Assembly: GCA_003140935.1 (NCBI GenBank)
Contig: PLLJ01000037.1
Location: 1 to 62,525, forward strand
Origin: Candidatus Omnitrophota bacterium
GTDB taxonomy: Bacteria > Omnitrophota > Omnitrophia > Omnitrophales > Aquincolibacteriaceae
DNA: 62,525 bases
Direction: 5' to 3'
A program made the position numbers and the translations under genes. Positions 17,737-43,149 of the stretch are shown here, piece after piece; the first letter of the stretch is position 1; each line of letters starts with the position of its first letter. The notes beneath the pieces were generated by a model that was not told the origin of the DNA, did not search any database, and saw nothing but the letters and a program-made list of their open reading frames with translations.

Positions 17737-20700
17737 TTAAGCTGCTACGGCGAAGGCGAGAGTGGCGTTATAACTTCTCTGAAGGGCGTTCACGAAGGAC
17801 TCGGCCACGATCCAGAATCCATCCCGGCCCTGGCTTATTTCCCGCAGCCGCGCATCTTCCCCGCCGGACCACGCCCAAAGAAGCGCTGCCGCCAGGGTCC
17901 CGCCGTTTTGCCCCTGCGTTTTAAAGAAAGAGACTCTCTTTCTCAAACGCTGGACCAACTTCTGGGATGGAAGGATCTTTTTTGAAAGATGAATGTTCGG
18001 CGTGCCTGGCCGGTCAAAACTGATCTGAGCCCCGGCAAGGTCCCTGTCGGTCCTCGTCACGCGATCAAGCTTCAGCAAAGCACCAAGCTCTTTATCTTGC
18101 ACTCGGCCGCGCTCGTTATAGACCACGATCCGGACCCCCCGGCCGGAAAGCGCCGCGTAAAAATATTCGTTCTTCTGAGCCACAGAAAGATTCGGAAAAT
18201 CCTCGGCGTCCACGAACACCGTCGCCGTCTGCGTGCCCTTGCGGATCGCCTTCACCATCCGGTCCGTCCTGTCCCCGCGAACCTCCGAACGGCGGTCTTG
18301 AACCACGGATGATGTTTCCGGGATAACGCTAGGTGTGTTCGTTCCCCGTTCCCCGTTCCCCGTTCCCCCGGATATTTCTTCCACTCCTCCCTGCACCTGT
18401 GGCGCAGTCCGCATCTCGGAGCGACCTGTTTGTGCTCTCCGATAGACGTTCCGGATCTCCGAACGGGCTGGACCTGTTGCATCGGGCGCTGAAGACTCAA
18501 GAGCAGCGCATAGATTATGAATGACTGTGAACATGGCTTCGATATCTTCGTTTTTAAATCCATAGAAATCGATCAGATCTTGCCGTTTCTTTTCGATGTA
18601 TTCGATCACGTTCTTTTCATTTCGTCCTTCGTCAGAAGCAAGGGTTTGCGCGCCTTTTGTCTTATACATCTCCGGTCCCCGATTGACCAGGAACTGCCAG
18701 GCAAGGTCGACCAGCCCATCGATCCTGTGTTTACCATCATTCATCGAAGCTATCCGCTCTTCTAGTTGAAGGTTGGGATCATAGAATCGATTACCCAACC
18801 CGGGCCCGTCTGATGTGTCCGCGATCCCGATCTTGGCTTTATTTTTCCAAAGCGCATAGATCCTATCCGGGTCAAGCGCTGCGGAAAGGTTATCAGCATC
18901 ATGAAGGAGCTTGGCCCCGAATGATAGTTCTTGCAGGAGCTTTTTCAAATGTCCATCGAGGACTCTCATGACCCCCTTGATCTCCTCCTCGTTCAAACTG
19001 CCGTCTTTTTTCAGTATCGATTTCATCCAGATGATGGAATTGAGGTCATGGTGTTCGCGATAAAGGATATTCGATAGATCATGGAAAATAACCGCGTAAC
19101 ATAGGGCCTTGGGATCGACTTCTACCGCCGAAAAACCGCCGCGATTCTCCGCTTTAATGATTTTCAAGCAATAGAGCAAGTCGTCCAGGCTATGAGAAAA
19201 GCCATGCCCCGACACGAAGGTCCTATCCTTATAAAACCGGCTGAAAAGGTGCGCCGGAATCCAGCGCTGAATGACCCTCATACATTCTTTGATCGTGGCT
19301 ATCACCGTTTCCGGATTCTCCCCGATCGCATGAAGTACGTTCCGAATCTCCTTGTCATAATCCTTGTCAGAATCCGAAGGCAGCGATATGTCCGAATCTG
19401 GCTGGGGTTTATCCGCGACAAGGCTGGAAAAGAGCTGCCCTTCTTTTGCTTCATTCGTCAAAAATCTTTTTTGCAGATCGGAGATCTTCTTATCATCAAG
19501 GTCACGTGCCTTGATCGTTTCTATATATTTTTCCAATGTGCCGATCTCCCGCGCTTCGGAGCTGGCGTCTTGCTGATTTAAAGCACTTTTCTGAAATAAA
19601 TAATCCTCCGGGATCTGGATATAATGTTTAAATTGATCCGGGTCTGCCCCCCCCGGATTCCACGACGGTGATTTTTCCCAAGTCCCGTCCCGTGTATAAG
19701 CCTGATTTTTATTGTTGAATAGTTTCATGGCGCGGATCCGGATGATCGAGTAGTCCTTCAGCTCATCCTTCATGACACTGTAAACACCCGGATCGTCTGT
19801 AAGCAGCGACTGAAAGAAAGTGTGCCCGCTATAGATCACTAATTTTTTCCCGGTTTCCAAAGCTCCGCGCAAATTTTCAGCCATCAGACCGATCTCATAA
19901 GCGTCATATTCATCCGGCAATATCACATCTTCTTCATTTACCTCAATCTGCCCGGAAAGCCATGGGAAATCCTTACCTCGGGATAAGCGCCCCGCCAAAT
20001 ACGATTTTCCAAAACCCGATCCTCCTTCGATCACCAACAAAACACGAGAATCGAGCGTCCGGATAATATCCCCCAGCTTTCGGATCCCTGCTTCATATTC
20101 GTAGGTATCTTGAAGGGACCTCGGATCAACACCTTCCCTAAGAAACATATCGATTTCACTCGCCGATATGCCTTTATCACCCATGACATCACCGCTCCGC
20201 GCCTCAGAGCGCGCGGAGGAAAGCCACTGCTCTTCGTCTTTATTTCTATCCGTCGCTTCCAGATACCGGCGGATCAACCCATTACCGCTCACTTCATTGA
20301 TGTCCACTAAAACGGATAACAGGCCGTCATAAAATCCGACCAGGATCCCGTATTTTTCAAATATTCGGATCGCCAGCTGATCCATTTTTTTTTGATATTT
20401 TCCATCATAGAGGTAAGGCGCTATAACGAGATCAAGATCCGAAGGCGATTTTTTCCCCCGCCGAAGCCCCGCGGCTACGTCGGCGTTTTGTTTAAGAAGA
20501 AGTCCGATCCGCGTCCTCTCGGGTCTTGAAGCAAAACTTCCCGCAAGCCAGAACCCCTGATTTTTGAGGGGAATCCCGGCCTCCTGCCATAACTGCCGGA
20601 GGCCCGTTACCGCCTCGTTCAATGCGGCCTGGTATTGGACAAGCGCAATAGACACTCCCAACTCACTCAAAGGCTGCCCGCTCTCGTCAAAATGATCCCC

Positions 20701-23700
20701 ATATTTCTCGACGATCTCGCGACGAGGCATTGCTCCGAATTGCCTCGTAATTTGAAGGGTTCTGTCCTCCGCGGAAATATTCCGCATCTCGGAGCGGGCA
20801 GGGTCATTGCCGGTTTGCGGAAGAAGACGCGCGCGAACGGTCTGCTCCGGACGTGCGGTCTCTTCTTCTCTCAAAGAAACCGATTGAGAAAGTTTTTGGG
20901 CGATCTGTGGTGCTGCCTGATACGGAACCCGGTATTGATACCGCTCCAATATCCTCAAAACAGATTGCAGGAATTTTTCCGATTTCACTTTATTCAGGGT
21001 TGGAATTCCCGGAAACATCTCCCCAAAATCCTTGTTTAATGCTTTTACCAGAAGATCGAAATTCTGAGGATAGTCTTTCGCCAAATAATCGATCCCGTAA
21101 AGATAAAGGGTTAGCTTGGCTTGAGGGGTCAATCTTGCCAAGAGCGTTTGAACTTCTTCCGGAGGCCGGGGAACCCCTCTGTCCTTATAGAAAAGACTAT
21201 AAACAGGCCGGACCGTCATCACGTCCCGCTCGGCATTGATCGCTTTCACGATCGCCTCCGTCCCCTCCTCGACCATGAGCGTAGTATCGATCTTATTCTC
21301 GAATTTTTCATCGCCAAAACCTTCCAGGCGGACAAGCGCGTAGGGTTGTATTCGGGTAGCCCCCTCCCGTTCTAAAAGTTCCAACGATTTCGCAAGGACG
21401 CTCCCGGTCATGAAAGAGTCGTCCAGTAAAATGACCTTTTTCCCCTTCAGCGGTATCGATCCTTCGAACCCCGGCGAGTCATGCGGGATAAACCTTACTT
21501 CCCTGGACCTTTCTTCGGGATTCGTATAACCCACATTAAAATACCGTGCTTGCCGTGCCGGATTGGCGGCCACTCCCTGGTCCAGCAATCGCTGAGAAAA
21601 AATATAATGGGGAAGACCCAATGCGTCGGAAATCTTCCTGGAAAATAGGGTAACCCCGTTAGGCAACCTCACGCCGGAGAGACTGACGATCACCCAGTCC
21701 TTTTCTGATCGGCCGATCTGGCTCCCCAGATCGTCCCTTATTCGTTCGATAAGCCGATCCGAAAAATAGTCGACCGCTTTGGGATCTCCGTATTTTAATT
21801 TAGAATACAAAAGCCCCAGCTCGGATTCTGAGGGAGATCCTTTCGTGATGTTGAGCAGGATGGTGGGAGGATACCGTCCAAAGATCTCGTTCCTCATCTC
21901 ACTCCGAACCTTACCCTTCTCCAATTCTAAGGGGACAAAACCGGCTTTTGACAATAGCTCGGTTTCTTTAGCGGGATTCAGGCTGGCCGCACTCACGCCC
22001 TGATCGATCTGGAGCTCGGTGAGGTCGTCCCTGTCCGGAGAGACCGTCACGGCGCCTAAGGATTCAAGGACATGCATGCTGTGATTTTCTCCGAGGACCG
22101 CGCCGACTGTGGTGATCGGACCGTTTGGTTCCCCGTAGGAAACGATCACACGGCCTTTCATCATGGCGGTCCAATGCGGAATCTGCGCGTCCTGCAGGAC
22201 TTTGACGAACTTCATGGCCGCTTTCGTGAGCTTTTCCGTGTCCGTATCTTCAAAAATGGCATGCGTAAGCTGCCAGGACTTGATCTTCGAGACCTTGACG
22301 GCATCCAGCGTGCCCTGCACCTCCGCTTCCGGCAGAAGCTTCTCGACCGGCAGGTCGATCGTCGTCACATGAATGTGAAGGTGATTGACCGTATACCAAT
22401 CGGTGTTCTGAAGGAATTTCATCCGGGGGTTTCGTTCCGCGAGGTCCAGTGAGGTTTTCATGTCCCCTGCGGTCAAAACGTTCGGCCGGACGCTCTCGGA
22501 GATCATCAGCGTGTGGAACGGCACGGTCAGGTCCATGGGCGGGACCATGTAATAGACCTTGTCCCCGGCCGCCACGGTCGCGAGGATCCCGCGCGGAACA
22601 AGGAACTTCTCTTTGATCTTGTTGAAATTAAAGTCGTCGAGGTCGAGCACCCGGACCGGCTTCAGCCCCTTGGGATTCGGGTTTTCCTGGACACGGTCCT
22701 TTCCCTTGATCGTGGGATCGAGTACCAATAAATATTTCCCGACGGGCTTCGACGGCGGGACCGGATGCGTTTGCACGTGGGCATTTCCCTGCCACGCCTG
22801 TTCAAAATATCGTTCAAAACCCTCCATGCTGAGCGGTTCGCCCTTCTGTCCCGACAGCTTCGTTTCCCGCATCTCGGAGCGGAACACGGAACGGGCATTG
22901 CGGAACGCTTGCTGATGGAATGCATTAAGTGTGGTCCATTTCGTTTGTTGATCGCCTGCGATGCTTTCTTTCCCCATCTTCACAATGACGTTTTCAATAA
23001 CCGATAGGACCTTGTCAGGGTCTTCACCCTGTTTTCTCACCTCTACCGCAGTCAATTTAACAAATTTTCTGAAGAAATCCGGCGCCTTTTCGAGCACCAA
23101 TCCCCGGATTTCCGGCACAAAGTAATAATCCGGATCACAGTTTTCTAAAAGCTTTCCTAGCAAAAACTCCAAAACGTCTGTGTGAACAGCCCATATTCTT
23201 TTTTCGCGATTCAAAATAACTCTCAAGCGTTTATTTATTTCTTGGCCTTTTTCAAAATAAAAATCGCTATCATAAAATCTGTCCGTAAAACTACAGAGTT
23301 CCACAAACCGCAACCATTTATGCTCGTCAAAAAACCGCTCGTATTTATGATAAAGCTTTCGAAAGATTCCGAAGAGAGCGTATTGAATAAATCGAATCAT
23401 TCTCACGACAAAATTCTGATCAACATTCCCTTTTAAGATGTTAAGCGGGTTCTTCCGCCACCGAATGTCCATAGTGATGCTTTTCAATCTTCCGAGATTT
23501 TCCAGCTCAATGTATGTGTCTGCATCGTGAACCAATTTCGCTCCGAGACTATCCGGCTTCGGCTTGCCTTGTCCATCATTCGCATAACCGTCCGGATAAT
23601 TTTCAGCATTATAAGTTTCGGGAACACCCCTGTGCCCGCGAATAACGTCTTTCACTTTGCCGATACGCTCATCGGTCCAACCCACACTCCTCAATATGTT

Positions 23701-26700
23701 TTCTGCAACTTTAGCTCCCTCCTCGTGATGGTTTTTCCGCTGCTCATGACCGGTAGAATCAAGGCCTTTGATATCATGTAAGAAAGCTCCTGCCGCAAGA
23801 GCTTCCCGATCCACTTCAAAGTGAAACTGATTCGCCCATTCAAAGACCTTCTTTGTCACATGCAGGCTGTGCTCAATACCGTGCTCAGCATTTTCATAAA
23901 ATTCTTTGAACTCGCTTGAGGAAAATTGCTCTTCGGACAGAGATTCGATGGCCCGCATTATTTGCTCGATCGGTCCCGTCGGAACCGTCATCCCTTTAAA
24001 GTATTCTCTCATTCGCTGAATATGTTGATCTGTTATCTTGCTCTTCTCTCGTTCTACAGGGGTTGGTCCCCGCATCTCGGAGCGGCTGGAATCCGTCCAT
24101 GGCTGCAAGACTTCCCCGCCATACTCGCGGAAAGCAAAAGTCAGTATGAGTTCGCGATAATCTTCACGAACAGGTTTTTTTATGCCTTTAGGAAGCAACT
24201 TAAGGTTGAGAAGTAAATCCGGATCGAACTGTCTTTTTAACTGTGCGAGATACTTTCCGGGCTTTATATTTCCCGGCCCCCAAATTCTTCGCATTTCACC
24301 CGTGATCGCATCTTTTTCCCGGACAGCCCGCTCGTAAGCTCCCGCTTTTTGCAGGAATTTTTGAATTTTCTTTTCGGGAATTTTACCGGCCCACATAAGG
24401 ACCTGCGACGCATAGCCCGCGCCCAAAAATTCACCCCCCTTTTTCCTCGACGGTAATTCGAGCCGATGCTGCTTATACCAATGCAGGAATGCGTCAAAAT
24501 CCTCGAACCCGGGAGCGCTTTGGATCGAGGCCGACTGCTCTGCATACTCATATCCCGAGGCGTTAAGTTGGAAACGCTTCAGTTTGTTTTCGGGGATTTT
24601 CCCGGCATGGACAAGCACCAGCACGGTCGTCCCGGCACCCAGAACTTCGGCGGGATCCTTTCGCGAGATCAATTCCGATCGATGTTCTTTATACCAACGG
24701 ATAAAAGTTTCAAAAGTTCCAAAGGAGGGCGCCTTTTGGATCACCGGGGAGTCTTGAGCATAATCATAGGCGGAAGAGTTCCTCTGAAACTCATGCAATT
24801 TCTTAGTCGAGATCTTCTGGGCGCGGACAAGGATCAAAACCACCGTCCCCGCACGAAGTGTTTCCCGGGGATTATCGCGGTAGCCCAGTTCATGCCGATG
24901 AGTTTTATACCAATCCATGAAATCTTTGAATGTTTCAAAGGACGGCGCTTCTCTAACCACATCCGAACCCTCCACATACTCGCATGCGCCGGCACTTCTT
25001 TTAAAATCCTCCACTTGATGACCCTGGATTTTTTCAGCTTGCGCAAGCACCTGGACCGCATAGGTCGCACTTAGAAACTCTTTCGCTTTGTCCCGGCTTG
25101 GAAGTTTTGACTCGTAGCGGATGTACCAACTCCAGAAATCATCAAATGTTTCCATGACAGGCGCACTTTGAATGACCGGAGATTGCTCGGCATATTCCCG
25201 CGCCCCCAGATCAAATTCGAACGATTGCTGTTGCCCTGACGGAATTTTTCCCAGCGCAGCGATCACTTGCAGTACTGTTTTTGCATGCAAAACTTCCTGA
25301 GGATTGATACCGGATAGAAATTCGGAACGGTGTTTTACGTACCAGTCCCAGAAGTCTTCGAACGCCTCAAATGACGGCGCAGGGTCAAAAAGCCCCCTGC
25401 TTTTTTCATAATGCCTCTTCGAAGAACCTTCCAAAGAATCCTCCCGCACCTCGGAGCGGGAAATGCCATCGTCGCTGAATGCGCGAGTGGCCTCCCGTAT
25501 TTCACCGACGGTAATTCCTTTTTTTCTGCCTAAAGACGGGTGATCAGGTGTGGGAGACGCCAGCATCAAACGCACCATCCAGTGCGACAAACTCACATGT
25601 TTTTCCGGGTTCAATCCATCCGTGCCATAGACCACCCCAATCTTGCTATCTGGTTCACTCCACCAGTAATTCGGATATTTTTCCCGAAGAACAAAAATCT
25701 CGTCCATCCAGCGGTCGGGACAAGATTCGACGGTGATTCCTCGTTCTTTCACTTCTCTTAAAAAAGCCTCATCGATGTCGTTCGCTGAAAACCATGCCCA
25801 ATCGCCGTCTCCCGTTCGAGTGTAGGCAACCGCTCCCTTTCCAGCAGGACTAAAGATCCGCCCGTGTCCGATCCGGTCAACGATGGGGCCAAAAGCTTTC
25901 AGGTGCGCACGAACAAACGCCTCATGCCCTTGCCGGTCCCATGCCGGCCCCGCCGCAAAAAAATCCCCGAGATGAGTCGTAATGATATACCCTGAGTCTT
26001 TGAGCTCACGAAGGTGTCCGGCCACTTCTTGCAAGTGATAAAATGGTCCGATCTCGTCTTCCTTCATAATTCGTCGCTGTTTCCCTTTACCCACTGAGAA
26101 CGACTCGACGCCGGAAATATCAATGCCCCGAAGCCGTTCGGCGTAGATCGTTTCGCCGGCGGTTCGCTTCAATTCTTTCAGGATTTCGAATTTTTTATCC
26201 CAGCCCTCTCCCCATTTAACCCCGCTCATGCGTTCCCGCGCGAACGAGAACATAAAACGGACTTTGTGATGGATCCCCCCATCCGTTCCCAAAGCACGGT
26301 CCGCTTCCTTCTCCGTATCCTCAAGCGCCTTGGAAAGTTTCGTCAGAAACTTTTTAAGATCCTCCGGCGCCAGTTGCTTTCCAACGGTTTTATAGGGATT
26401 GAATCGAAGTTCAAGGTCATAAATCCCGTCTGCGAAATTTTGGCTCGCGATATTCTGGATCACACGGATAAAGGCCGGCTGAAACAACTGCCGGGCCGTT
26501 TCCCGCATTCCCGCCTCAGGCGCATTGTCGACGATCCATCCAAGAGTATCCAGCCACACATCAAAGAGCTCTCTTTTTCCGCGTCGCGACGTTTTCATAA
26601 AATTTTCCAGTGCTTGGATCGAAATATCCTTTTCATCTGGAAACTGCTCTAAGAATTTCAAAAAAGCTCCGTGGGTAGCCGCATATTCGCCGGTCAGCTT

Positions 26701-29028
26701 TTCTTTTTGCACCTTAATGTATTCCTTCATGGCCGTCCGGTAATAACCCGGCTGAAATTTACTGCTAAGACTCGCCATTTCATCATGGATCATCTGAAGG
26801 GGGATCGAAGCACTAACGTGAGTATGCCGCTCCTTCTTGGGCCACTGGCGAACCATTTCGATTAGGGCTTGATAGGCGAGATTACGGGAAGGAAATTTGT
26901 TTAAATGAAAAATCCTTTGAAAGAACATCATCAGATGGAGAATCGCGTTAAGAATGATTTTAGAGATACTTAAGACTGTGGGACGTTTGATCTTACTTTC
27001 TAAGAAGCTGGAGTAATAGGTGAAAGGATCGATCTGCCGGAGCAATTGATTAATAGCGCTCGTTCTTACATAGTCCTTCAATATTCTCGGATCGTTTTGG
27101 GACTCTTTAAGAATGTCTGCAAGATATGCGCCCGGATGATCGCTCGCAATGGATTCGAAGACCTGAGAAAGAGCTCGAACTTCAAGAAGCCGCGCCTTAT
27201 TAAAATAGTCCCCTTTTTTCATTTGGAGCTCGCCCCACAAGATCGGCGTTTGTTTCAAGAAAAGCTCCGCCGCCTCATCATCTTGGCTTCTCTCTCGTAC
27301 CTCGGAGCGGCGATCACTCCTGGACACCTCTGAGGCGGATACGGTCCCAGAATGCGCAAGACGTTGTTCGATCAGCGGCGTTGCGGAATAAACGCCAAGG
27401 GCTTCCACTGAAGAAACGATCGCGCGGAGTTCCGCATTCACCGGTTGTTCTCCGTTCGTGACGGCTTCAAAAAAGGTGCTGGGGGGACGGTTCGCACGGG
27501 CCGCAAGAAAAGGGACTTCGAAAGAGTAGTGGCCCACGGACATGAGCTGCTTGTAGTCTTCCTGGTGTTTTTTATCGATCCCGGTGATCGCCGGCGAGAT
27601 CACGGCATAAGAGATCCCTTTTGTCCGCAATAGTTCCTTGATATTGTTGGCGTGAAAACCGCCGTACACCAGCACCGCGGGTGCGGCGTTCGCGGAACTC
27701 GGGACTCGGGATTCGGGACTCGTGCCGAAAAAACGATCCAGTGCCTTAGCGAGCGCGCTATCGCGCTGTAAGGCGATCTCATAAAACCGTACCGCATCCT
27801 TAATATGCCGTTCCCACTCTTTCGACAGCACCAGGGACCGGTGCGTGAGCGAGACGATAAAATCCGCCAGTTTTTGAGTCTCGAATTTCCGAAGCATCTC
27901 TTTGACCGCTTCATATTCCGGCTGGGTCAGCTCGATCCGGTTCAGCCGGTTAAGAAGGCTGAGAGCCTGATAATAGGTGAAGATCCGCCGTTCCCGTTCG
28001 GTCCCCAGATAAGCCTCGGAAATATCCCGCTCAAGCCGCTGGATCTCCCCAAAAACAACCGAGGAGTCCAGCGCGTTCAGTTGTTCGATCAGTTCCGGGT
28101 TCCGGGCCGTTTGGGCCGCGAGAAGCAACGATACTGCGGGATAATTTTTAATGAAAATCGCCGGACCGCGGTCCGAAGGATAGAAGGTTTGAAGCTCTTT
28201 CAGATAGTTGAGGATCGGCAACTTCCCTTCCGTAAAACGTTCTTTCACTTTGAGGCAGGCTTTCAGGGCCTTCGGAAAGTGCCGGTCCGCAAGATTCGAG
28301 ATCTGAGTGAAAAGCTCTCTCAGGTCCTCACTTGTATCTGTTCTACTTTTTGAGGCATCACGGTAGGATTCGATGTTCTCGCCGTACAACTTGAGATCCT
28401 CGACGCCGATCAGATCGAATGCGCCGGTACGGTTGATGTGAGCGTATTCCGCTCCGCCGATGCGGAGCTTATCCAAGAGGAAATAAGAAACTTTTTGTCT
28501 GACCGCAGGATCTTTGATGAATCCGAAGAACTTGTCTGTCGGAACGGGGCCTTCGTAGCCTTCTTCAAAAACTGTTTTAATCCCTTTCTCTTTCACGAGC
28601 AGGCCGATGATCTTGGCCATATTCTCCTGGGCTTCGAGGGAATCGTGGGCGTCCTGGATGAAAACGATCGTTTTCTCAGACCGGGACTCGGGATTCGTAG
28701 CTCGCCTGGCTCTCATTAATTCTTTATCGGAAGCCAGTGCAGCACTTTCAGTGCGGGACTCGTTTTCGTTCCGCGTTTCTCGAGTCCCTAGTCCCGAGGA
28801 ACGAGTCCCGGCTCGATAGATTTCATCGATCGAGCCGAGTTCTTTGGGTATCGAAAGGGATGCCGGATCGGAAGCAACTGTTGTGACTGAAGGACTTGCA
28901 TAACCCTGGGGAGCATAGCGGGTAGCATCGAACAAAGTAAAAGCAATAATGACAAATGCCGCCGTGACCCGGCGCCAGAAAAGGCCGTTTTGCCATGTTT
29001 TATAAGAGGTTTTTGTCCCAAATATCAT
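17737..29028 (-). CDS. Giant 3,763-aa membrane-anchored multidomain protein with nucleotide-acting modules
   Basis: A single uninterrupted ORF of 11,292 nt with an N-terminal signal anchor (FWRRVTAAFVIIAFTLF). Motifs seen:
- deaminase-like: YDLELRFNPY, RIGHG, ITVESCPD, VYGTDG
- HD 1: FLHDIKG, LVHDAD
- HIT-like: NHLHIHV
- PRTase: VILLDDSFMTGS
- nucleotidyltransferase: LAGSFA...SDLDLVI
- Walker A: EGGSGFGKS
- HD 2: VIFHDLSN, LLHDADN
It also carries five 72-aa tandem repeats and ten R-S-E-x-R punctuation motifs. Confidence 0.9.
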   Translation of the reverse strand: MIFGTKTSYKTWQNGLFWRRVTAAFVIIAFTLFDATRYAPQGYASPSVTTVASDPASLSIPKELGSIDEIYRAGTRSSGLGTRETRNENESRTESAALASDKELMRARRATNPESRSEKTIVFIQDAHDSLEAQENMAKIIGLLVKEKGIKTVFEEGYEGPVPTDKFFGFIKDPAVRQKVSYFLLDKLRIGGAEYAHINRTGAFDLIGVEDLKLYGENIESYRDASKSRTDTSEDLRELFTQISNLADRHFPKALKACLKVKERFTEGKLPILNYLKELQTFYPSDRGPAIFIKNYPAVSLLLAAQTARNPELIEQLNALDSSVVFGEIQRLERDISEAYLGTERERRIFTYYQALSLLNRLNRIELTQPEYEAVKEMLRKFETQKLADFIVSLTHRSLVLSKEWERHIKDAVRFYEIALQRDSALAKALDRFFGTSPESRVPSSANAAPAVLVYGGFHANNIKELLRTKGISYAVISPAITGIDKKHQEDYKQLMSVGHYSFEVPFLAARANRPPSTFFEAVTNGEQPVNAELRAIVSSVEALGVYSATPLIEQRLAHSGTVSASEVSRSDRRSEVRERSQDDEAAELFLKQTPILWGELQMKKGDYFNKARLLEVRALSQVFESIASDHPGAYLADILKESQNDPRILKDYVRTSAINQLLRQIDPFTYYSSFLESKIKRPTVLSISKIILNAILHLMMFFQRIFHLNKFPSRNLAYQALIEMVRQWPKKERHTHVSASIPLQMIHDEMASLSSKFQPGYYRTAMKEYIKVQKEKLTGEYAATHGAFLKFLEQFPDEKDISIQALENFMKTSRRGKRELFDVWLDTLGWIVDNAPEAGMRETARQLFQPAFIRVIQNIASQNFADGIYDLELRFNPYKTVGKQLAPEDLKKFLTKLSKALEDTEKEADRALGTDGGIHHKVRFMFSFARERMSGVKWGEGWDKKFEILKELKRTAGETIYAERLRGIDISGVESFSVGKGKQRRIMKEDEIGPFYHLQEVAGHLRELKDSGYIITTHLGDFFAAGPAWDRQGHEAFVRAHLKAFGPIVDRIGHGRIFSPAGKGAVAYTRTGDGDWAWFSANDIDEAFLREVKERGITVESCPDRWMDEIFVLREKYPNYWWSEPDSKIGVVYGTDGLNPEKHVSLSHWMVRLMLASPTPDHPSLGRKKGITVGEIREATRAFSDDGISRSEVREDSLEGSSKRHYEKSRGLFDPAPSFEAFEDFWDWYVKHRSEFLSGINPQEVLHAKTVLQVIAALGKIPSGQQQSFEFDLGAREYAEQSPVIQSAPVMETFDDFWSWYIRYESKLPSRDKAKEFLSATYAVQVLAQAEKIQGHQVEDFKRSAGACEYVEGSDVVREAPSFETFKDFMDWYKTHRHELGYRDNPRETLRAGTVVLILVRAQKISTKKLHEFQRNSSAYDYAQDSPVIQKAPSFGTFETFIRWYKEHRSELISRKDPAEVLGAGTTVLVLVHAGKIPENKLKRFQLNASGYEYAEQSASIQSAPGFEDFDAFLHWYKQHRLELPSRKKGGEFLGAGYASQVLMWAGKIPEKKIQKFLQKAGAYERAVREKDAITGEMRRIWGPGNIKPGKYLAQLKRQFDPDLLLNLKLLPKGIKKPVREDYRELILTFAFREYGGEVLQPWTDSSRSEMRGPTPVEREKSKITDQHIQRMREYFKGMTVPTGPIEQIMRAIESLSEEQFSSSEFKEFYENAEHGIEHSLHVTKKVFEWANQFHFEVDREALAAGAFLHDIKGLDSTGHEQRKNHHEEGAKVAENILRSVGWTDERIGKVKDVIRGHRGVPETYNAENYPDGYANDGQGKPKPDSLGAKLVHDADTYIELENLGRLKSITMDIRWRKNPLNILKGNVDQNFVVRMIRFIQYALFGIFRKLYHKYERFFDEHKWLRFVELCSFTDRFYDSDFYFEKGQEINKRLRVILNREKRIWAVHTDVLEFLLGKLLENCDPDYYFVPEIRGLVLEKAPDFFRKFVKLTAVEVRKQGEDPDKVLSVIENVIVKMGKESIAGDQQTKWTTLNAFHQQAFRNARSVFRSEMRETKLSGQKGEPLSMEGFERYFEQAWQGNAHVQTHPVPPSKPVGKYLLVLDPTIKGKDRVQENPNPKGLKPVRVLDLDDFNFNKIKEKFLVPRGILATVAAGDKVYYMVPPMDLTVPFHTLMISESVRPNVLTAGDMKTSLDLAERNPRMKFLQNTDWYTVNHLHIHVTTIDLPVEKLLPEAEVQGTLDAVKVSKIKSWQLTHAIFEDTDTEKLTKAAMKFVKVLQDAQIPHWTAMMKGRVIVSYGEPNGPITTVGAVLGENHSMHVLESLGAVTVSPDRDDLTELQIDQGVSAASLNPAKETELLSKAGFVPLELEKGKVRSEMRNEIFGRYPPTILLNITKGSPSESELGLLYSKLKYGDPKAVDYFSDRLIERIRDDLGSQIGRSEKDWVIVSLSGVRLPNGVTLFSRKISDALGLPHYIFSQRLLDQGVAANPARQARYFNVGYTNPEERSREVRFIPHDSPGFEGSIPLKGKKVILLDDSFMTGSVLAKSLELLEREGATRIQPYALVRLEGFGDEKFENKIDTTLMVEEGTEAIVKAINAERDVMTVRPVYSLFYKDRGVPRPPEEVQTLLARLTPQAKLTLYLYGIDYLAKDYPQNFDLLVKALNKDFGEMFPGIPTLNKVKSEKFLQSVLRILERYQYRVPYQAAPQIAQKLSQSVSLREEETARPEQTVRARLLPQTGNDPARSEMRNISAEDRTLQITRQFGAMPRREIVEKYGDHFDESGQPLSELGVSIALVQYQAALNEAVTGLRQLWQEAGIPLKNQGFWLAGSFASRPERTRIGLLLKQNADVAAGLRRGKKSPSDLDLVIAPYLYDGKYQKKMDQLAIRIFEKYGILVGFYDGLLSVLVDINEVSGNGLIRRYLEATDRNKDEEQWLSSARSEARSGDVMGDKGISASEIDMFLREGVDPRSLQDTYEYEAGIRKLGDIIRTLDSRVLLVIEGGSGFGKSYLAGRLSRGKDFPWLSGQIEVNEEDVILPDEYDAYEIGLMAENLRGALETGKKLVIYSGHTFFQSLLTDDPGVYSVMKDELKDYSIIRIRAMKLFNNKNQAYTRDGTWEKSPSWNPGGADPDQFKHYIQIPEDYLFQKSALNQQDASSEAREIGTLEKYIETIKARDLDDKKISDLQKRFLTNEAKEGQLFSSLVADKPQPDSDISLPSDSDKDYDKEIRNVLHAIGENPETVIATIKECMRVIQRWIPAHLFSRFYKDRTFVSGHGFSHSLDDLLYCLKIIKAENRGGFSAVEVDPKALCYAVIFHDLSNILYREHHDLNSIIWMKSILKKDGSLNEEEIKGVMRVLDGHLKKLLQELSFGAKLLHDADNLSAALDPDRIYALWKNKAKIGIADTSDGPGLGNRFYDPNLQLEERIASMNDGKHRIDGLVDLAWQFLVNRGPEMYKTKGAQTLASDEGRNEKNVIEYIEKKRQDLIDFYGFKNEDIEAMFTVIHNLCAALESSAPDATGPARSEIRNVYRRAQTGRSEMRTAPQVQGGVEEISGGTGNGERGTNTPSVIPETSSVVQDRRSEVRGDRTDRMVKAIRKGTQTATVFVDAEDFPNLSVAQKNEYFYAALSGRGVRIVVYNERGRVQDKELGALLKLDRVTRTDRDLAGAQISFDRPGTPNIHLSKKILPSQKLVQRLRKRVSFFKTQGQNGGTLAAALLWAWSGGEDARLREISQGRDGFWIVAESFVNALQRSYNATLAFAVAA
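24298..25377 (-). repeat. Five tandem 72-aa (216-nt) coding repeats inside the giant ORF
   Basis: The units start PSFEAFEDFWDWY, PVMETFDDFWSWY, PSFETFKDFMDWY, PSFGTFETFIRWY and PGFEDFDAFLHWY. Each has a conserved F..F..WY..HR.EL ... AGKIP core. Confidence 0.85.
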
Positions 29029-29205: not shown

Positions 29206-30969
29206 TCAGAGATTGAACTGCAGGTCGTAAAGCTTCTTATACATTCCACCCAATCGCAAGAGGAATTCGTTCGTTCCCTGCTGGACGATCTGCCCCTTAT
29301 CCATCACAAGGATACGGTCCGCCTTCTGGATGGTGGAAAGACGATGGGCGATCACGAGCACAGTGCGGGCCTTCATGAGGTTCTCCAAGGCGCCCTGGAC
29401 CTCTTTTTCGCTTTGCGTATCAAGATGCGAGGTGGCTTCATCGAGAATCAGGATCGGCGGGTCCTTGAGAAGCGCTCTTGCGATCGCAATACGCTGGCGC
29501 TCGCCGCCGGAAAGTTTGAGTCCCCTTTCCCCTAGCGGGGTATCATACCCTTGAGGAAGAGTTTCGATAAAATGATCGGCGTACGCGATCTCGGCCGCCC
29601 GTTTCACGTCTTCCAGACTCGCGTCCGGACGCCCATAAGCGATATTCTCCCGGATCGTACCGTTGAAAAGAACGGTCTCCTGCGACACGATCCCGATCAA
29701 GCCGCGCAGAGAATGAAGCGACAGGTCCCGGATGTCCTTGCCGTTGATCTTGATCATGCCTTGAACGGGATCATAAAAACGGAGGAGAAGGCTCACGAGC
29801 GTGGTCTTTCCGGAACCGCTTGCGCCCACGAACGCGATCACCTCGTTGTGTTTGGCCTTGATCTCAATATCCTTAAGCACCCACTTGTCGAATTCATAGT
29901 AGAAACCCACATGCTCATAGCTGATCTCGCGGATCGGCTCGGAAAAGACAAGGGCGCCGGGTTTATCCTGGATCGTGGGCTTGGAGTCCAAGACCTCGAA
30001 AATACGCTGCCCTGAGGCGATCGACTGCTGGATCGTGCTGTTCACCTTGCTTATTTTTTTGAGCGGCTCATAACAGATATACAGCGAAATAAAAAAAGCC
30101 GCGAACCGCTCCGGCGGCAGGTATTTGATACCAAACCACACCGCGAACGCGGCGCCCACCGCGCCGATCACTTCGATCAAAGGGCGCTGGATGATCGTGA
30201 TCTTGATGGTCCTCCTGAAGAAATTAAAAACACTTTTGTTGATCTCCTCGAAATGGTGGATCTCCCTTTCTTCGCTCGTGAAGGCCTTGACGATATGGGC
30301 CCCGGAAAGGGTTTCGCCGATAAAGGCGGTGATGTCCCCGGTGCGCTCCTGCATTTTTTTCGTCAACTTGCGGAGCTGTTTGCCCAAAAGCACGATGGGG
30401 ATGGCCACGAGCGGAAAGATCAGGATCGCGATCAGCGCGTATTTCCCGCCCCAGATAAAAATAAAGGGGATGTTGAAAAGGATGACCAGGGGCTGTTTGA
30501 CAAGATCGGTGATCACGTCCGTGATCGCGCCCTGGATCTGGCCGACATCGTTCGTGATGCGGGAAAGAAAATCCCCGGTGCGGCCTTTCGCGTAAAAATC
30601 GTGGGAAAGATAAACTAAATGACGGTAGAGATCATCCCGGACTTTGCGGACCGCGAGGATCCCCACATTGGACATTTGATAGTTTGAGACATAATCAAAA
30701 AAACCGCGCAGAATGAATACGACGACGAGAATCACCGGGACCCAGATAATGGGCAAGGCCACCGAGGTGATCTTGGGGAAATATTTCGAAAGATAGGGGA
30801 TGTTATCGATCACGATCTGGTTTTTTTGAACAAAACCCTTCGTGACCATATAGATCGCGACCGAGACAAGCGCGTTCGCCATCGAAAAAGCAAGCATGCA
30901 CAAAAAGGCGATGGCGAGGCGCCAGCGGTACGGCTTCACATAACCCAGTAGCCTTTTATAGATATTCAT
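29206..30969 (-). CDS. msbA: ABC transporter permease/ATP-binding protein, MsbA-like lipid A exporter
   Basis: Six-TM N-terminal domain, Walker A GASGSGKTT, signature LSGGERQR, and Walker B ILILDEATS. I place the start at the ATG at 30969 (GGAGG about 6 nt upstream) rather than 31086. Confidence 0.8.
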   Translation of the reverse strand: MNIYKRLLGYVKPYRWRLAIAFLCMLAFSMANALVSVAIYMVTKGFVQKNQIVIDNIPYLSKYFPKITSVALPIIWVPVILVVVFILRGFFDYVSNYQMSNVGILAVRKVRDDLYRHLVYLSHDFYAKGRTGDFLSRITNDVGQIQGAITDVITDLVKQPLVILFNIPFIFIWGGKYALIAILIFPLVAIPIVLLGKQLRKLTKKMQERTGDITAFIGETLSGAHIVKAFTSEEREIHHFEEINKSVFNFFRRTIKITIIQRPLIEVIGAVGAAFAVWFGIKYLPPERFAAFFISLYICYEPLKKISKVNSTIQQSIASGQRIFEVLDSKPTIQDKPGALVFSEPIREISYEHVGFYYEFDKWVLKDIEIKAKHNEVIAFVGASGSGKTTLVSLLLRFYDPVQGMIKINGKDIRDLSLHSLRGLIGIVSQETVLFNGTIRENIAYGRPDASLEDVKRAAEIAYADHFIETLPQGYDTPLGERGLKLSGGERQRIAIARALLKDPPILILDEATSHLDTQSEKEVQGALENLMKARTVLVIAHRLSTIQKADRILVMDKGQIVQQGTNEFLLRLGGMYKKLYDLQFNL

Positions 30970-31160
30970 AATCCTCCCGGATCGGGAAATGAAAAGCGGA
31001 TAATGAGGAACGATGGCATTCAACGTTCGTCGTTCCCCGTGCTCCCTGCACAACAGGGGAGCACACTGTAACATATTCGTTGACACTGCTCAAGGTTATG
31101 ATTTAAGCTTCTCAGGCGTTGTTTTCTCCCCGATAACTCATGCATTATAAAGGAGTTAGG

Positions 31161-40572: not shown

Positions 40573-43149
40573 TTACCCGAAATAGCAGACGACTTTTTGA
40601 GAAAGGACGTCTGCGGCGATCTTGAGTTCGTTCTTTTTCACGTCGAACACCTTGACCACATGCTCATATTTTTTGTATTCCGGCGCCAGTTTCTTGAGCG
40701 TCTTCGGGATCGCTTCAAAGAATTTTTTGTCCATCGCCACGCTCGGGTCCTCCGGGAAAAGGGCCACATAAAAGATCCCCGTTTCCACAAGGTCCTGGAA
40801 GAAATGGGTCCCGAAGGAGATCTCGGGAGAGGCGTTTTCCGTAACAAAGGCGATCTCACCGAGGACCGTAATATGATTGATCTCGGCAAAAGAGACCGGC
40901 ACCCCCAAAGAAGGCGTGGTCGTTCCCCACCGCCCCGGGCCTAAAAGCATCACGGCCATTTTCTCTTTGCTTTCGATCTTTCGATTGAGCTCTCCGACAA
41001 CGCGCGCGATATCATAACGCTCGGATTGCGTCTCCAACCCGCAATAAGCCTCCGGGTCCACGTAGATGATCCGGTCGATCGTCTGCAAAATGTTCCCGCC
41101 GAGAAAATTTCCTTTCGAGCAGAAGAGAGTTTTTTCCTTGGGGATCGTTTTCGGGATCTTGACGCGCTGTCCCAATCCCTTGGTCTGCATCGGCCGGCAC
41201 TGGACCAGGTTTACCTGGAATTCTCCGCTTGGCTTGAAATTGACCGTAAATTCGATATCCACGGGGTACCCGTAGGCCGCTTCCAAGGTTTTGAGGATCT
41301 TTTGCATGATCGGGGCGAACTTTGTTTTTGAAACAAGGCTGTCGAAAGTGATGATCCAGGGTTCCTCGTCGGACCCCATCGCCTGTAATTTTTCCGCGAC
41401 TTCGTGGTCCTTGATCGCCAGAAGCTCGAGAGGTAAATCCACCTTTTCCTTAAGTAATTTTCTGAAAGAAATCGTTTGCGGGATATTTTCTTTGACGTTC
41501 AATACGTCCACGTCGTGCTGAGAGAACTTTTGCGTCGCCGCCATCCCCGCATAGGCCTTGAGAAGAGGCTCATCCAGGGCCACCACTCGAGGGTAGTCTC
41601 CTTCGACACGGTTGACCGCGCGGGTCCCCAAACCCAGGACCAATCGCAACATGCCCGCTTTGGGGTCTAAACCGCTCTTCCAGACAAAAACGTTCTGCGA
41701 GATCCCGACACCGGCGGCCGCCGGGAAAAAATAATCCTGGTGGTAAGCCCCCGAGACCCTCTGGACGAGAAGCGCCATTTGTTCGTCCATCTGGTCCAAT
41801 CCGCGCTGCAACCGGTAGGCCAAGGCGTCCGGATTCATCGTAGAAGCATAGATCCGCCGGACCGCTTCAACGAACTTCGCATACCGCTCGTCGGGCGTTC
41901 CCTGATTGACGAGAAAAACACTTTCATATTTTCCGGCAAAGGCGTTCCCGTAACTATCCTCGAGCAAACTGCTGGAACGAACGATGATCGGTGATTGTCC
42001 GAAATATTCGATCATTTGCAAGAATTGGTCTTTGATCTCTTCGGGGAAAATACCCCTGAGCAATTCCTCATGAAGTCTCCCGGCCATCTCAGAATAACCT
42101 TCCGGTGTTCTCTGCGCCATATGGTCCTTCCAGAGACCGTTTTCAACAATATAGGTATAGAAGACATCTGAACCGATATAGAAAGAATCGTGCGGCTCGA
42201 ATAATTTTTCCGTTTCCAAGGACTTTTCTTTCAACAAAATGTTCCGGGCGATCAACATCCCGACGGACTTCCCTCCGATGAACCCCGTCCCGATCATTCT
42301 CGCCTTGATATTCAAGAGATCCTCGAGCGAAAGGTTCTCCTTAGCCAGTTCCAGCATTTTTTCATCGCGCGCCAGCACGATCCTGCATAGTTGGTCCATC
42401 ATTTGTTCTTTGACCCCGTGGGAAGCGCCCTTTTGGCCCGCAAGGTCCTCCGCCTTCAAGAAAAGCTGGTCCCAGTAATCCAAGTGCCGCTTGGCGCTCT
42501 TGGCCCCTTTTTTAAAGATCTCGGAAAAGACCTTCGCCGTGTCGGCGCTATTGGCGATCGGGATGAATTTGTCCTTCTGCCGGACATGGGGCAGGAACAT
42601 GGTCGGAGAATAACGGTTCCAGACCTTCAGGAGATGGATATAACAATCACCGTGGTAATAATACACATCGATCAAAAGCTGGGTCGTATCCCGGATGCGT
42701 GCGACGGTCTTGAACGAATGCCGGTTCCGCAAAAGGGCGAAATAAGCGATCGTATTCAGTTCATAAAGGTAGGGGCAAGTGATCTTGAAAAAATTCCCGA
42801 TCATAAGGTCATTGGCCCAAGCCGAGAGCAGGTCCGAGAGGCAGTCGAAAACATAAAAAACGCCTTCGCCTTCTTTCTTCGCGATACTGTTGATCTGGGC
42901 GGAAAAAGGTTCGAAACCCACATGCGGGTTCAGTTTGTAGACCGTGATGTTCTTGTCTTCCTTCAGCAGGGGCTCATGATTGGCAAACCGGATATAGACG
43001 AGTTTTCTATTTTCTTCGAGGGCTTTTGGGACGAAGGGGGTGACAAACTCCGCGTAATGTTGGATCGTATCGACCTGCCAAACAACATTGTCGCCCAACC
43101 GCAATCCTGTGGTGACCTTATCGAGACCTTTGACTCCTGAGCTGATCAA
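40573..43149 (-). CDS. PEP/pyruvate-binding (PPDK_N ATP-grasp) domain protein with degenerate KaiC/RecA-like N-terminal domain
   Basis: 858 aa with a TTG start and AAGGAG upstream. The N-terminus GVKGLDKVTTGLRLGDNVVW resembles KaiC/RadA-type openings but lacks a Walker A. The central FIGGKSVGML and IIVRSSSLLEDSYGNAFAGKYES match the nucleotide-binding domain of PEP synthase/PPDK. I saw no phosphohistidine swivel or PEP-binding domain. Confidence 0.7.
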   Translation of the reverse strand: MISSGVKGLDKVTTGLRLGDNVVWQVDTIQHYAEFVTPFVPKALEENRKLVYIRFANHEPLLKEDKNITVYKLNPHVGFEPFSAQINSIAKKEGEGVFYVFDCLSDLLSAWANDLMIGNFFKITCPYLYELNTIAYFALLRNRHSFKTVARIRDTTQLLIDVYYYHGDCYIHLLKVWNRYSPTMFLPHVRQKDKFIPIANSADTAKVFSEIFKKGAKSAKRHLDYWDQLFLKAEDLAGQKGASHGVKEQMMDQLCRIVLARDEKMLELAKENLSLEDLLNIKARMIGTGFIGGKSVGMLIARNILLKEKSLETEKLFEPHDSFYIGSDVFYTYIVENGLWKDHMAQRTPEGYSEMAGRLHEELLRGIFPEEIKDQFLQMIEYFGQSPIIVRSSSLLEDSYGNAFAGKYESVFLVNQGTPDERYAKFVEAVRRIYASTMNPDALAYRLQRGLDQMDEQMALLVQRVSGAYHQDYFFPAAAGVGISQNVFVWKSGLDPKAGMLRLVLGLGTRAVNRVEGDYPRVVALDEPLLKAYAGMAATQKFSQHDVDVLNVKENIPQTISFRKLLKEKVDLPLELLAIKDHEVAEKLQAMGSDEEPWIITFDSLVSKTKFAPIMQKILKTLEAAYGYPVDIEFTVNFKPSGEFQVNLVQCRPMQTKGLGQRVKIPKTIPKEKTLFCSKGNFLGGNILQTIDRIIYVDPEAYCGLETQSERYDIARVVGELNRKIESKEKMAVMLLGPGRWGTTTPSLGVPVSFAEINHITVLGEIAFVTENASPEISFGTHFFQDLVETGIFYVALFPEDPSVAMDKKFFEAIPKTLKKLAPEYKKYEHVVKVFDVKKNELKIAADVLSQKVVCYFG

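Follow-up and report, generated by a model that had tools for sequence, protein, structure and literature searches.

A family-specific pentapeptide at the module junctions of giant Omnitrophota proteins: a candidate cleavage site for polyprotein processing

Results

The stretch of DNA analyzed here, referred to as the window, comprises the 62,525 nucleotides of contig PLLJ01000037.1 from a Candidatus Omnitrophota bacterium (assembly GCA_003140935.1). On its minus strand lies one giant open reading frame (ORF; positions 17737 to 29028, 3763 amino acids [aa] plus stop codon), whose product, according to the ORF list and translation, is made up of a putative signal peptide, a conserved N-domain, a series of cargo modules, and a conserved C-domain. 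The subject of this study is a pentapeptide, RSE[MVIA]R, which punctuates this protein. A sequence-only reading had placed ten copies here, dividing the protein into segments of 573, 612, 453, 396, 320, 365, 190, 577, 9, 39, and 179 aa; we found every coordinate to be correct, with all ten sites in the frame of the one ORF, and obtained the same segment lengths. The composition of the protein would predict 0.098 RSExR matches (x being any residue) against the ten seen, and 2,000 shuffles yielded a maximum of 2. The same reading had noticed the pentapeptide in no other protein of the window, and indeed a search of all six frames turned up no further RSE[VLMAI]R; in the six other RSExR matches found there, the fourth residue is T, S, R, P, G, or E.

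Reading from the N terminus (every feature described here is on the minus strand), residues 1 to 44 (28897 to 29028) resemble a signal peptide on direct reading of the sequence, with a basic stretch followed by VTAAFVIIAFTLF and then by ...QGYA/SP. The conserved N-domain occupies residues ~111 to 538 (27415 to 28698), as delimited by alignment A1 and by a profile match at residues 111 to 538. Its tail holds a degenerate form of the motif, NAELR (residues 531 to 535; 27424 to 27438), visible in the printed sequences and at the end of the A1 consensus; another degenerate copy, NALQR (residues 3747 to 3751; 17776 to 17790), lies in the last helix of the C-domain. Motif 1 (RSEVR, residues 574 to 578; 27295 to 27309) marks the junction of N-domain and cargo and, like motif 2 (RSEVR, residues 1191 to 1195; 25444 to 25458), was located in the translation. 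Between them lies cargo segment 2 (612 aa; 25459 to 27294), which is unannotated apart from a faint adenosine-deaminase-like match in the library searches. Cargo segment 3 (453 aa, residues 1196 to 1648; 24085 to 25443) contains, on translation, five repeats of ~70 to 75 aa with the core ..SFE.FEDFWDWY..HR.EL..; it scores 27.1 bits (E = 3.9e-6) against DUF7753, for which the Pfam cut-off is 27, and no stretch passes alone. Motif 3 (RSEMR, residues 1649 to 1653; 24070 to 24084) is one of four copies encoded by an identical 15-mer and stands at the start of a block of homology with a related locus, L007. It is followed by cargo segment 4 (396 aa; 22882 to 24069), an HD-domain phosphohydrolase module (PF01966, E = 6e-12, residues 1718 to 1839), and by motif 4 (RSEMR, residues 2050 to 2054; 22867 to 22881; identical 15-mer), which is both the end of the L007 homology and the start of homology with another locus, L004.

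Cargo segment 5 (320 aa; 21907 to 22866) has the sequence HLHIHV and a faint GalT/HIT-like match, and is closed by motif 5 (RSEMR, residues 2375 to 2379; 21892 to 21906; codons CGG AGT GAG ATG AGG). Cargo segment 6 (365 aa; 20797 to 21891) is phosphoribosyltransferase-like, with a PF00156 match below the Pfam cut-off (E = 6.8e-5) and ComF/PRPP-type matches in NCBIfam; motif 6 (RSEMR, residues 2745 to 2749; 20782 to 20796; identical 15-mer) separates it from the unannotated cargo segment 7 (190 aa; 20212 to 20781). After motif 7 (RSEAR, residues 2940 to 2944; 20197 to 20211) comes cargo segment 8 (577 aa; 18466 to 20196), which holds both a P-loop, GGSGFGKS, and a faint second HD-like region, not separated by any motif. 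Motif 8 (RSEIR, residues 3522 to 3526; 18451 to 18465) and motif 9 (RSEMR, residues 3536 to 3540; 18409 to 18423; identical 15-mer) are separated by a spacer of 9 aa, and a further spacer of 39 aa leads to motif 10 (RSEVR, residues 3580 to 3584; 18277 to 18291), at the cargo/C-domain junction in a linker modeled with low confidence. The conserved C-domain (residues ~3597 to 3763; 17740 to 18240; profile match at residues 3597 to 3760) ends in ...AFAVAA-COOH, the final AA being encoded by the last two codons (17740 to 17745). It had been suggested that each recognizable enzyme block sits in a segment of its own. The HD domain of segment 4 bears this out in Pfam; in the remaining segments the searches of Pfam, NCBIfam, and PDB sequences gave faint or sub-cut-off matches or none.

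The motif was presented by the sequence-only reading as a feature of a single ORF; it is instead the hallmark of a family that spans the phylum. When residues 1 to 1200 of the giant protein were used to search for homologues, 92 proteins were returned, nearly all from Omnitrophota where the source is named. These match the window protein only across its first ~550 residues, and the cargo beyond is unrelated: radical SAM enzymes, phosphoenolpyruvate (PEP)-utilizing enzymes, methyltransferases, NUDIX domains, glycosyltransferases, and amylase, as well as sigma-70 regions, kinases, beta-propellers, and HEAT repeats. Searched with an N-domain profile built from alignment A1, 50%-identity clusters gave 8,326 matching representatives at E <= 0.001, of which 2,946 reached E <= 1e-30; among the best 150 matches many are 3,000 to 6,700 aa long (the longest relative listed has 6,726 aa), and the domain starts within the first ~160 residues in nearly all. 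No model in Pfam or NCBIfam covers the family.

The homologues hold 214 RSExR sites in 133,000 aa; position 4 is V in 57, L in 46, M in 44, A in 34, and I in 22 (203 in all), with another residue in the remaining 11. The permuted controls RESxR, ESRxR, and SRExR gave 0 to 3 matches, while RAE[VLMAI]R gave 35. A further 92 representatives contained 604 sites in 337,000 aa (1.8 per 1,000 aa), and the density of R[SA]E[VLMAI]R across the family sets was 1.5 to 1.8 per 1,000 aa. A tally around 202 sites limited conservation to the five residues themselves, the flanks being rich in A, S, G, P, and E. Among species-representative genomes, 156 stretches encode a relative, and 80 such loci (all from metagenome-assembled genomes, 1.3 Mb) were analyzed. 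They are labelled Omnitrophota/Omnitrophica or "uncultured bacterium," with one "uncultured Planctomycetales," and a genome typically carries several family paralogues. A comparable density of the motif in unrelated proteins of the genome had been named as the outcome that would point to a compositional artifact; in these loci it is concentrated in the family ORFs, at 1.48 per 1,000 aa versus 0.11 outside them, and nearly all of the outside matches fall in same-strand giant ORFs that are family fragments or tandem members of a second subfamily.

Members of this divergent second subfamily have a signal peptide and a variant of the N-domain (QDAHSIP...EGA...AGGFH), and their C-terminal region is of another type. 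An example is the gene at 3596 to 17632 of L081 (JAUYMS010000035.1; 4678 aa), whose product matches the N-domain profile only weakly (E = 4e-33). Its genes often stand in tandem directly upstream of a family gene (L002, L004, L011, L014, L024, L030, L033, L044, and L074). The second subfamily bears the same motif (RSELR at 9 of 9 sites in L081) and ends in [AS]A.

Throughout the family the motif sits at the junctions between N-domain and cargo, between one cargo module and the next, and between cargo and C-domain. The first motif lies a median of 112 aa after GGFH, one of the invariant elements of the N-domain (interquartile range, 88 to 125), and the last a median of 194 aa before the C terminus (interquartile range, 176 to 216). 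Distances between motifs are bimodal, with spacers of 20 to 50 aa and modules of 200 to 600 aa (median, 313 aa). In five Pfam-annotated homologues, no motif falls inside the best-matching stretch of any Pfam family. The two sites covered by structural models follow or lie in segments of low confidence, as judged by the predicted local distance difference test (pLDDT): the N-domain model falls to a pLDDT of ~46 to 59 over its final ~60 residues, and the first 20 residues of the C-terminal model average 57 to 60, with the first helix beginning right after RSEVR.

The junctions are also the places at which cargo has been exchanged. When the giant protein was compared with the family ORFs by BLAST, only the N-domain, the C-domain, and two cargo blocks were shared. 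One block, containing the HD module (residues 1649 to 2057), corresponds to residues 590 to 995 of L007, where it stands directly after the N-domain; the other (residues 2044 to 2364, in segment 5) corresponds to residues 1695 to 2012 of L004. In the junction alignment, identity is high through ...FRNARSVFRSE[M/A]R and there is none beyond, and at the remaining junctions the limits of homology coincide with the motif or fall no more than about 20 residues away. The breakpoint check proposed with the sequence-only reading thus came out positive: relatives differ in module content, with breaks at or near the motif, which delimits shuffled cassettes. In an all-against-all comparison, alignment ends fell within 5 aa of a motif about three times as often as at random, a noisy measure (collinear multi-module and fragmented alignments blur it) to which the junction alignments are to be preferred.

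The pace of this exchange can be gauged from the gene upstream. The product of the MsbA-like gene at 29206 to 31086 is ~90% identical to those encoded at 6933 to 8702 of L007 and 7172 to 8941 of L009, which identifies the latter as orthologous loci with replaced cargo. For the adjacent N-domains, by contrast, identity drops to 76% and 57%, and the cargo differs; evolution of the giant gene is therefore far faster than that of the genes around it. We considered the MsbA-like gene as a conserved partner of the giant gene and rejected it, since its presence is simple synteny with two close relatives.

What is conserved at the junctions is the peptide. In the genome JAUYMS01, four loci have 31 RSELR and one RAELR among 32 sites; in CAYSSX01, three loci have RSELR at 26 of 26; in CAYGIT01, RSEAR accounts for 16 of 23; and other genomes have mostly RAE-type sites. 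Two sites of one genome agree with a probability of 0.49, versus 0.17 after shuffling (maximum of 2,000 shuffles, 0.20). The N-domains of the same-genome paralogues are 41 to 51% identical and no closer to one another than to members from other genomes, so that the paralogues sharing a motif variant are old or fast evolving. Nevertheless, the DNA that encodes this constant peptide varies freely: the 32 sites of JAUYMS01 comprise 31 distinct 15-mers and the 26 of CAYSSX01 comprise 26, with all six Leu codons in use. A residue that changes in concert across diverged paralogues while synonymous positions drift points to selection on the peptide, probably by way of one trans-acting protein. The motif is selected as a peptide and not as DNA.

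The second position is instructive in another respect. Ala replaces Ser in whole lineages (for example, RAExR at 15 of 16 sites of P0110), which rules out Ser as a self-cleavage nucleophile or as an obligatory modification site; if the chain is cut, the RAExR lineages argue for an external protease rather than for Ser-based self-cleavage. We also looked for columns of the N-domain that vary with the preferred residue of the motif. The highest mutual information was 0.87, under the 95th percentile of the null maximum (0.90). The lack of a covarying column, together with the retention of the conserved N-domain residues in members that have no motif, speaks mildly against the N-domain as the recognizing enzyme.

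The peptide-level interpretation has to be reconciled with the identical nucleotide strings in the window, first pointed out from the sequence alone. Four copies (at 18409, 20782, 22867, and 24070, all on the minus strand) do share the 15-mer CGCTCCGAGATGCGG, against 0.00 in shuffles; two further copies keep CGCTCCGAG, and the other four use different codons. In the window, 10 of 10 sites have GAG for Glu (frequency in the rest of the gene, 0.40; p = 1e-4) and 7 of 10 have CGC for the first Arg (in the rest of the gene, 0.15; p = 1.5e-4), and these preferences account for the coincidence of the four RSEMR copies as 15-mers. Similar preferences run through the family (figures rest on 405 to 413 sites in L001 to L081). 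CGC or CGT encodes the first Arg at 78% of sites, whereas the share is 39% in the rest of these ORFs and 45% among Arg residues that precede Ser; AGY serves for Ser at 2 to 4% of sites versus 31 to 33% elsewhere; and the last Arg is CGG at 39% versus 26%. The near-exclusive use of TCN for Ser fits the exchange of Ser and Ala (TCN to GCN), given that a passage between TCN and AGY requires leaving Ser. Codon-pair context was tried as the cause of the CGY bias and does not account for it.

From these observations one might suppose that the motif is a DNA element, a site of recombination or gene conversion for cassette exchange, of which the peptide is a by-product. The four identical copies, the recurrence of the same 15-mer once or twice in each of 10 of the 80 related loci, the homology breakpoints, and the motif-specific codon bias all suit such an element. 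However, single genomes hold the peptide constant while nearly every 15-mer differs; in the window itself, motif 5 encodes RSEMR with 4 of 15 bases changed; and the identity of the four copies ends at the edges of the 15-mer, with not one further base shared. Moreover, modules that share a breakpoint are only ~50 to 60% identical in protein, so the exchanges are old, and no recombinase family recurs beside the loci (neighbor clusters were compared without annotation). We consider this reading very improbable and, as the primary cause, largely refuted. What survives of the earlier proposal of recombination scars is that homology blocks break at the motif; the DNA of the motif is not generally conserved. 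Modules of such low identity, joined at a motif whose DNA is free to change, indicate a permissive joint rather than a DNA recombination site.

That the motif works at the RNA level, whether as a small hairpin in the giant mRNA, as a pause site, or as a target for an endonuclease, seems to us scarcely credible. An imperfect dyad had been noted in the motif, and the CCGC...GCGG pairing does give a possible 4-bp stem in three of the four identical copies; the codon preferences (CGC for the first Arg, G in the last place of the fourth codon, and CGG for the last Arg) could be read in the same way. However, folding z-scores are -0.6 to -2.3, which is not significant, the third bases of the first Arg and hydrophobic codons do not covary (p = 0.09), there is no match in Rfam, and in other genomes the codons vary freely.

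The two carrier domains are as distinctive as the motif. The printed N-termini of family members resemble Sec signal peptides, with a basic stretch and a hydrophobic core followed by ...SYA/Q or ...AFA/Q (in the window, ...GYA/S). The N-domain proper (~430 aa) has invariant QDAH, EEGxEG, AEYAH, WE, R, GGFH, and H in alignment A1. It has no match in Pfam, NCBIfam, or PDB sequences. Its AlphaFold2 (AF2) model (pLDDT, 80) is an alpha/beta core with a helical insert of ~220 residues, in which QDAH and GGFH lie on consecutive beta-alpha units, together with EEG. A Foldseek search with this model gave nothing significant and was dominated by helical-bundle noise; the erythromycin esterase EreC (6xcs_A) appeared as a weak match (probability, 0.30; TM-score, 0.20). 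The erythromycin esterase/ChaN/TIKI superfamily is marked by paired GxxH motifs plus a Glu, a pattern into which QDAH, GGFH, and EEG would fall, and includes the protease TIKI.

It may be asked, then, whether the N-domain is itself the processing enzyme, a metal-dependent hydrolase that would cut at the motifs once exported, in cis or between copies, in the manner of the cysteine protease domain of the MARTX toxins. An invariant set of His, Asp, and Glu residues (QDAH, EEGxEG, AEYAH, GGFH, and H) on an alpha/beta core, a sole relevant fold match to EreC, and a first motif that always follows close behind the domain are what one would look for in such an enzyme. Even so, the EreC match falls short of significance, the domain has no sequence match to any of the families searched, and none of its columns covaries with the variable residue of the motif. 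Members without motifs keep all of the conserved residues, as does P0082, which has no cargo, and diverged paralogues of one genome share a residue preference that is better explained by one shared factor. We hold it to be improbable that the N-domain does the cutting. (P0082, at 696 aa, consists of N-domain and C-domain only, with neither cargo nor motif.)

At the other end of the chain, an iterated profile found the ~165-aa C-domain in 64 sequences, ending 3 to 5 residues before the stop in nearly all. Its AF2 model (pLDDT, 86) has a Rossmann-like alpha/beta fold, for which Foldseek returned generic Rossmann-like matches only; Pfam, NCBIfam, and PDB sequences gave no match. The chain ends in AA (47) or SA (32) in 79 of 92 representatives, compared with 5 of 419 neighboring non-family ORFs. 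The second subfamily shares this end despite an unrelated C-terminal region, which suggests that the AA/SA end itself is recognized. Tail-specific proteases of the Prc/Tsp type, and the ssrA tag, work through nonpolar C-terminal tails, and the AA/SA end recalls these.

Discussion

In the current study, we found that a pentapeptide first seen in one giant ORF is a real, family-specific motif, placed at the junctions of modular proteins and coincident with the breakpoints at which their cassettes have been exchanged. Going by sequence comparison, R-[S/A]-E-[V/L/M/A/I]-R is probably, and we would put it no more strongly, the point at which a site-specific endopeptidase recognizes and cuts an exported polyprotein. 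In the mechanism that we propose, a Sec-type signal peptide would carry the unfolded chain over the inner membrane, and a site-specific endopeptidase, encoded once per genome outside the family genes, would cut at the motifs. These cuts would part the N-domain, the cargo modules (singly or in small groups), and the C-domain from one another. That the sites might process a secreted polyprotein was among the proposals made before any comparison was available, and of those proposals it fits the comparative evidence best; export, cleavage, and the trans-acting protease as the recognizing factor are what we infer.

The main rival, which we think unlikely, is that the motif is recognized and never cut: a short linear docking or escort motif in the linkers, bound by a partner, that would organize or accompany the bead-on-a-string protein while the chain remains whole. 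The partner could be the protein's own N- or C-domain, a periplasmic chaperone, or a machine for export or surface assembly. A sharply defined pentapeptide between unconserved flanks, a genome-specific residue, and varied codons are equally well explained by binding and by cutting. Copies resembling the motif within the tail of the N-domain and the final helix of the C-domain, groups of two or three close copies that could raise avidity, and a negative search for a protease also agree with a binding role. However, no column of the N-domain covaries with the preferred residue beyond chance; AF2 leaves the adjacent linker undocked on either domain, with low pLDDT; and there is no evident benefit in tethering unrelated enzymes that differ between orthologous loci.

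Several further observations weigh against cleavage by an exported, site-specific endopeptidase. We found no protease domain in the giant protein or among the annotated window neighbors, and no gene family, such as that of a dedicated protease or exporter, recurs beside the 80 loci (the neighbor clusters were not annotated). The export signal was judged heuristically, by hydropathy and by eye and without a dedicated predictor, a strict hydropathy threshold being passed by 67 of 109 complete members. Some of the cargo, including radical SAM enzymes and sigma-70 domains, is ill suited to function outside the cytoplasm; either the products reach the cytoplasm of another cell, or the topology differs from that suggested by the N terminus. 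Nor is the motif found at every domain boundary: in P0032 and P0060, two unrelated domains lie between consecutive motifs, and a number of cargo-bearing members have no motif, one, or two (L025, L040, L070, L075, P0043, and P0083 to P0085; one or two copies only in L040 and L075) while retaining the conserved N-domain residues. It may be that these members use another junction signal, or none. The synonymous codon bias specific to the motif goes beyond codon-pair context or a hairpin. Finally, at both of the positions that are degenerate in the window protein, R[AS]E[LIF]R is intact in many paralogues, which fits a structural or docking role; the junction motif may be derived from these elements of the carrier domains, or may mimic them.

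A wider picture may be drawn, of a phylum-wide polyprotein system unlike any described from cellular organisms, in which thousands of Sec-exported giant genes would share one carrier (the N-domain plus the C-domain with its obligatory AA/SA end) loaded with interchangeable enzyme cassettes, these being freed by a dedicated endopeptidase that coevolves with the genome, so that the enzymes act outside the cytoplasm. We offer this picture tentatively and, taken as a whole, incline somewhat against it. On this speculative scheme, a host or prey cell may be where the released enzymes work, together forming a cocktail of effectors of metabolism.

Giant proteins of Omnitrophota in which unrelated enzymes are joined have been catalogued as "multi-enzyme metabolic clusters" (Nielsen & Lui 2026, bioRxiv 10.64898/2026.06.07.730766; West-Roberts et al. 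2023, bioRxiv 10.1101/2023.11.21.568195). They come from the same phylum, unrelated enzyme domains tile one polypeptide with a signal peptide or membrane anchor, and the cargo is of the same kinds (methyltransferase, HD, NUDIX, HIT, radical SAM, ROK, and glycosyltransferase). The catalogued giants are much longer (10,000 aa or more in Nielsen & Lui, compared with 3,763 aa for the window protein and at most 6,726 aa for its listed relatives). To judge by its architecture, the window protein would belong with these giants, below their length threshold. Post-translational cleavage was suspected by West-Roberts et al. (bioRxiv 10.1101/2023.11.21.568195). Neither study mentions the N-domain, the C-domain with its AA/SA end, or the junction motif, and the text of Nielsen & Lui (bioRxiv 10.64898/2026.06.07.730766) contains no word starting with "cleav" or "motif." Our literature search likewise found no description of the junction motif, the N-domain, the C-domain, or the AA/SA end, and no paper treating polyproteins of Omnitrophota; nor did the papers found give termini of separate mature products. 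Recognition motifs at the junctions of modular polyproteins are known in kind, whereas for the family that carries this one we found no earlier description.

The implications reach beyond the one gene. Giant genes are a hallmark of Omnitrophota, which are widespread, uncultivated, and apparently host-dependent nanobacteria. Whether such genes yield a single chain or a cut-up product has been named explicitly as an open question, and in one study the want of known cleavage points blocked structural analysis. The motif supplies concrete candidate cleavage points and, with them, a rule by which giants can be split for structure prediction and annotation. It also gives a handle on the recognizing enzyme, whose specificity pocket should covary with the L, V, A, M, or S/A variant of each genome, and the family merits a name and a profile of its own. 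Should cleavage be confirmed, the family would offer one of the rare examples of bacteria that express polyproteins systematically, and it could serve as a natural toolkit for the modular secretion and release of enzymes.

Several known systems resemble the family in part. In the MARTX toxins of Vibrio, conserved ends flank variable effector modules that are shuffled between strains and freed by cuts in the linkers. These toxins are exported by type I secretion without an N-terminal signal peptide, and they have glycine-rich RTX-type repeats and an internal cysteine protease domain, activated by inositol hexakisphosphate, that cuts after Leu. The likeness lies in the conserved N- and C-terminal regions around shuffled modules. 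However, a Pfam scan of the whole window protein and of each segment found neither Peptidase_C80 nor RTX-type repeats; the family N-termini look Sec-like; the upstream ABC protein lacks a C39 domain and stands beside lpxB, as MsbA does; and the cargo resembles ordinary metabolic and nucleotide enzymes, with no recognized toxins.

Viral polyproteins come closest in the form of the signal. Those cut by the 3C protease of picornaviruses or the NIa protease of potyviruses have a short consensus at every junction, which evolves with the protease of the lineage, and the family shares with them a junction consensus, unconserved flanks, and units the size of modules. It differs in being encoded by a cellular genome, in comprising several paralogous polyproteins, and in having no embedded protease domain. 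In precursors of cyanobactins (patellamide type), recognition sequences flank cores of 6 to 8 residues and are served by subtilisins of the PatA/PatG type from the same cluster; here, too, there are recognition sequences around variable repeated cassettes, although the cassettes of the present family are enzyme domains of 200 to 600 aa. The gingipain polyproteins of Porphyromonas have a signal peptide, modules cut at basic residues, and a sorting C-terminal domain, which for the type IX system is a beta-sandwich of ~80 aa restricted to Bacteroidota. By contrast, the C-domain described here is a Rossmann-like alpha/beta domain of ~165 aa with an obligatory AA/SA end. The signals of sortase, exosortase, and rhombosortase, each a single C-terminal array of motif, transmembrane helix, and basic tail, differ as well, in that our motif is internal and present in many copies and the C terminus is a soluble alpha/beta domain without a terminal transmembrane helix.

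The surroundings of the giant gene in the window are those of a housekeeping region. Its neighbors include uvrB, valS, a LeuA-type synthase gene, and the genes for aspartokinase, phosphoglycerate mutase, a pyridoxal phosphate (PLP)-dependent enzyme, and homoserine dehydrogenase, besides the MsbA-like ABC protein and lpxB; glutamate synthase, carAB, a beta-barrel porin-2-type protein (BBP2), KdpA, and a P-type ATPase subunit are also encoded. No tRNA or tmRNA gene was found in the window. Among the relatives, L025 stands out in having, in place of the motif, [SA]GFGA repeated ten times. One further gene of the window (40573 to 43149) is free-standing and encodes an 858-aa protein with a PPDK_N (PEP/pyruvate dikinase-type) domain; domains of the PPDK type also ride as cargo in family members, such as P0004, so the cargo duplicates types of enzyme that the genome also encodes separately.

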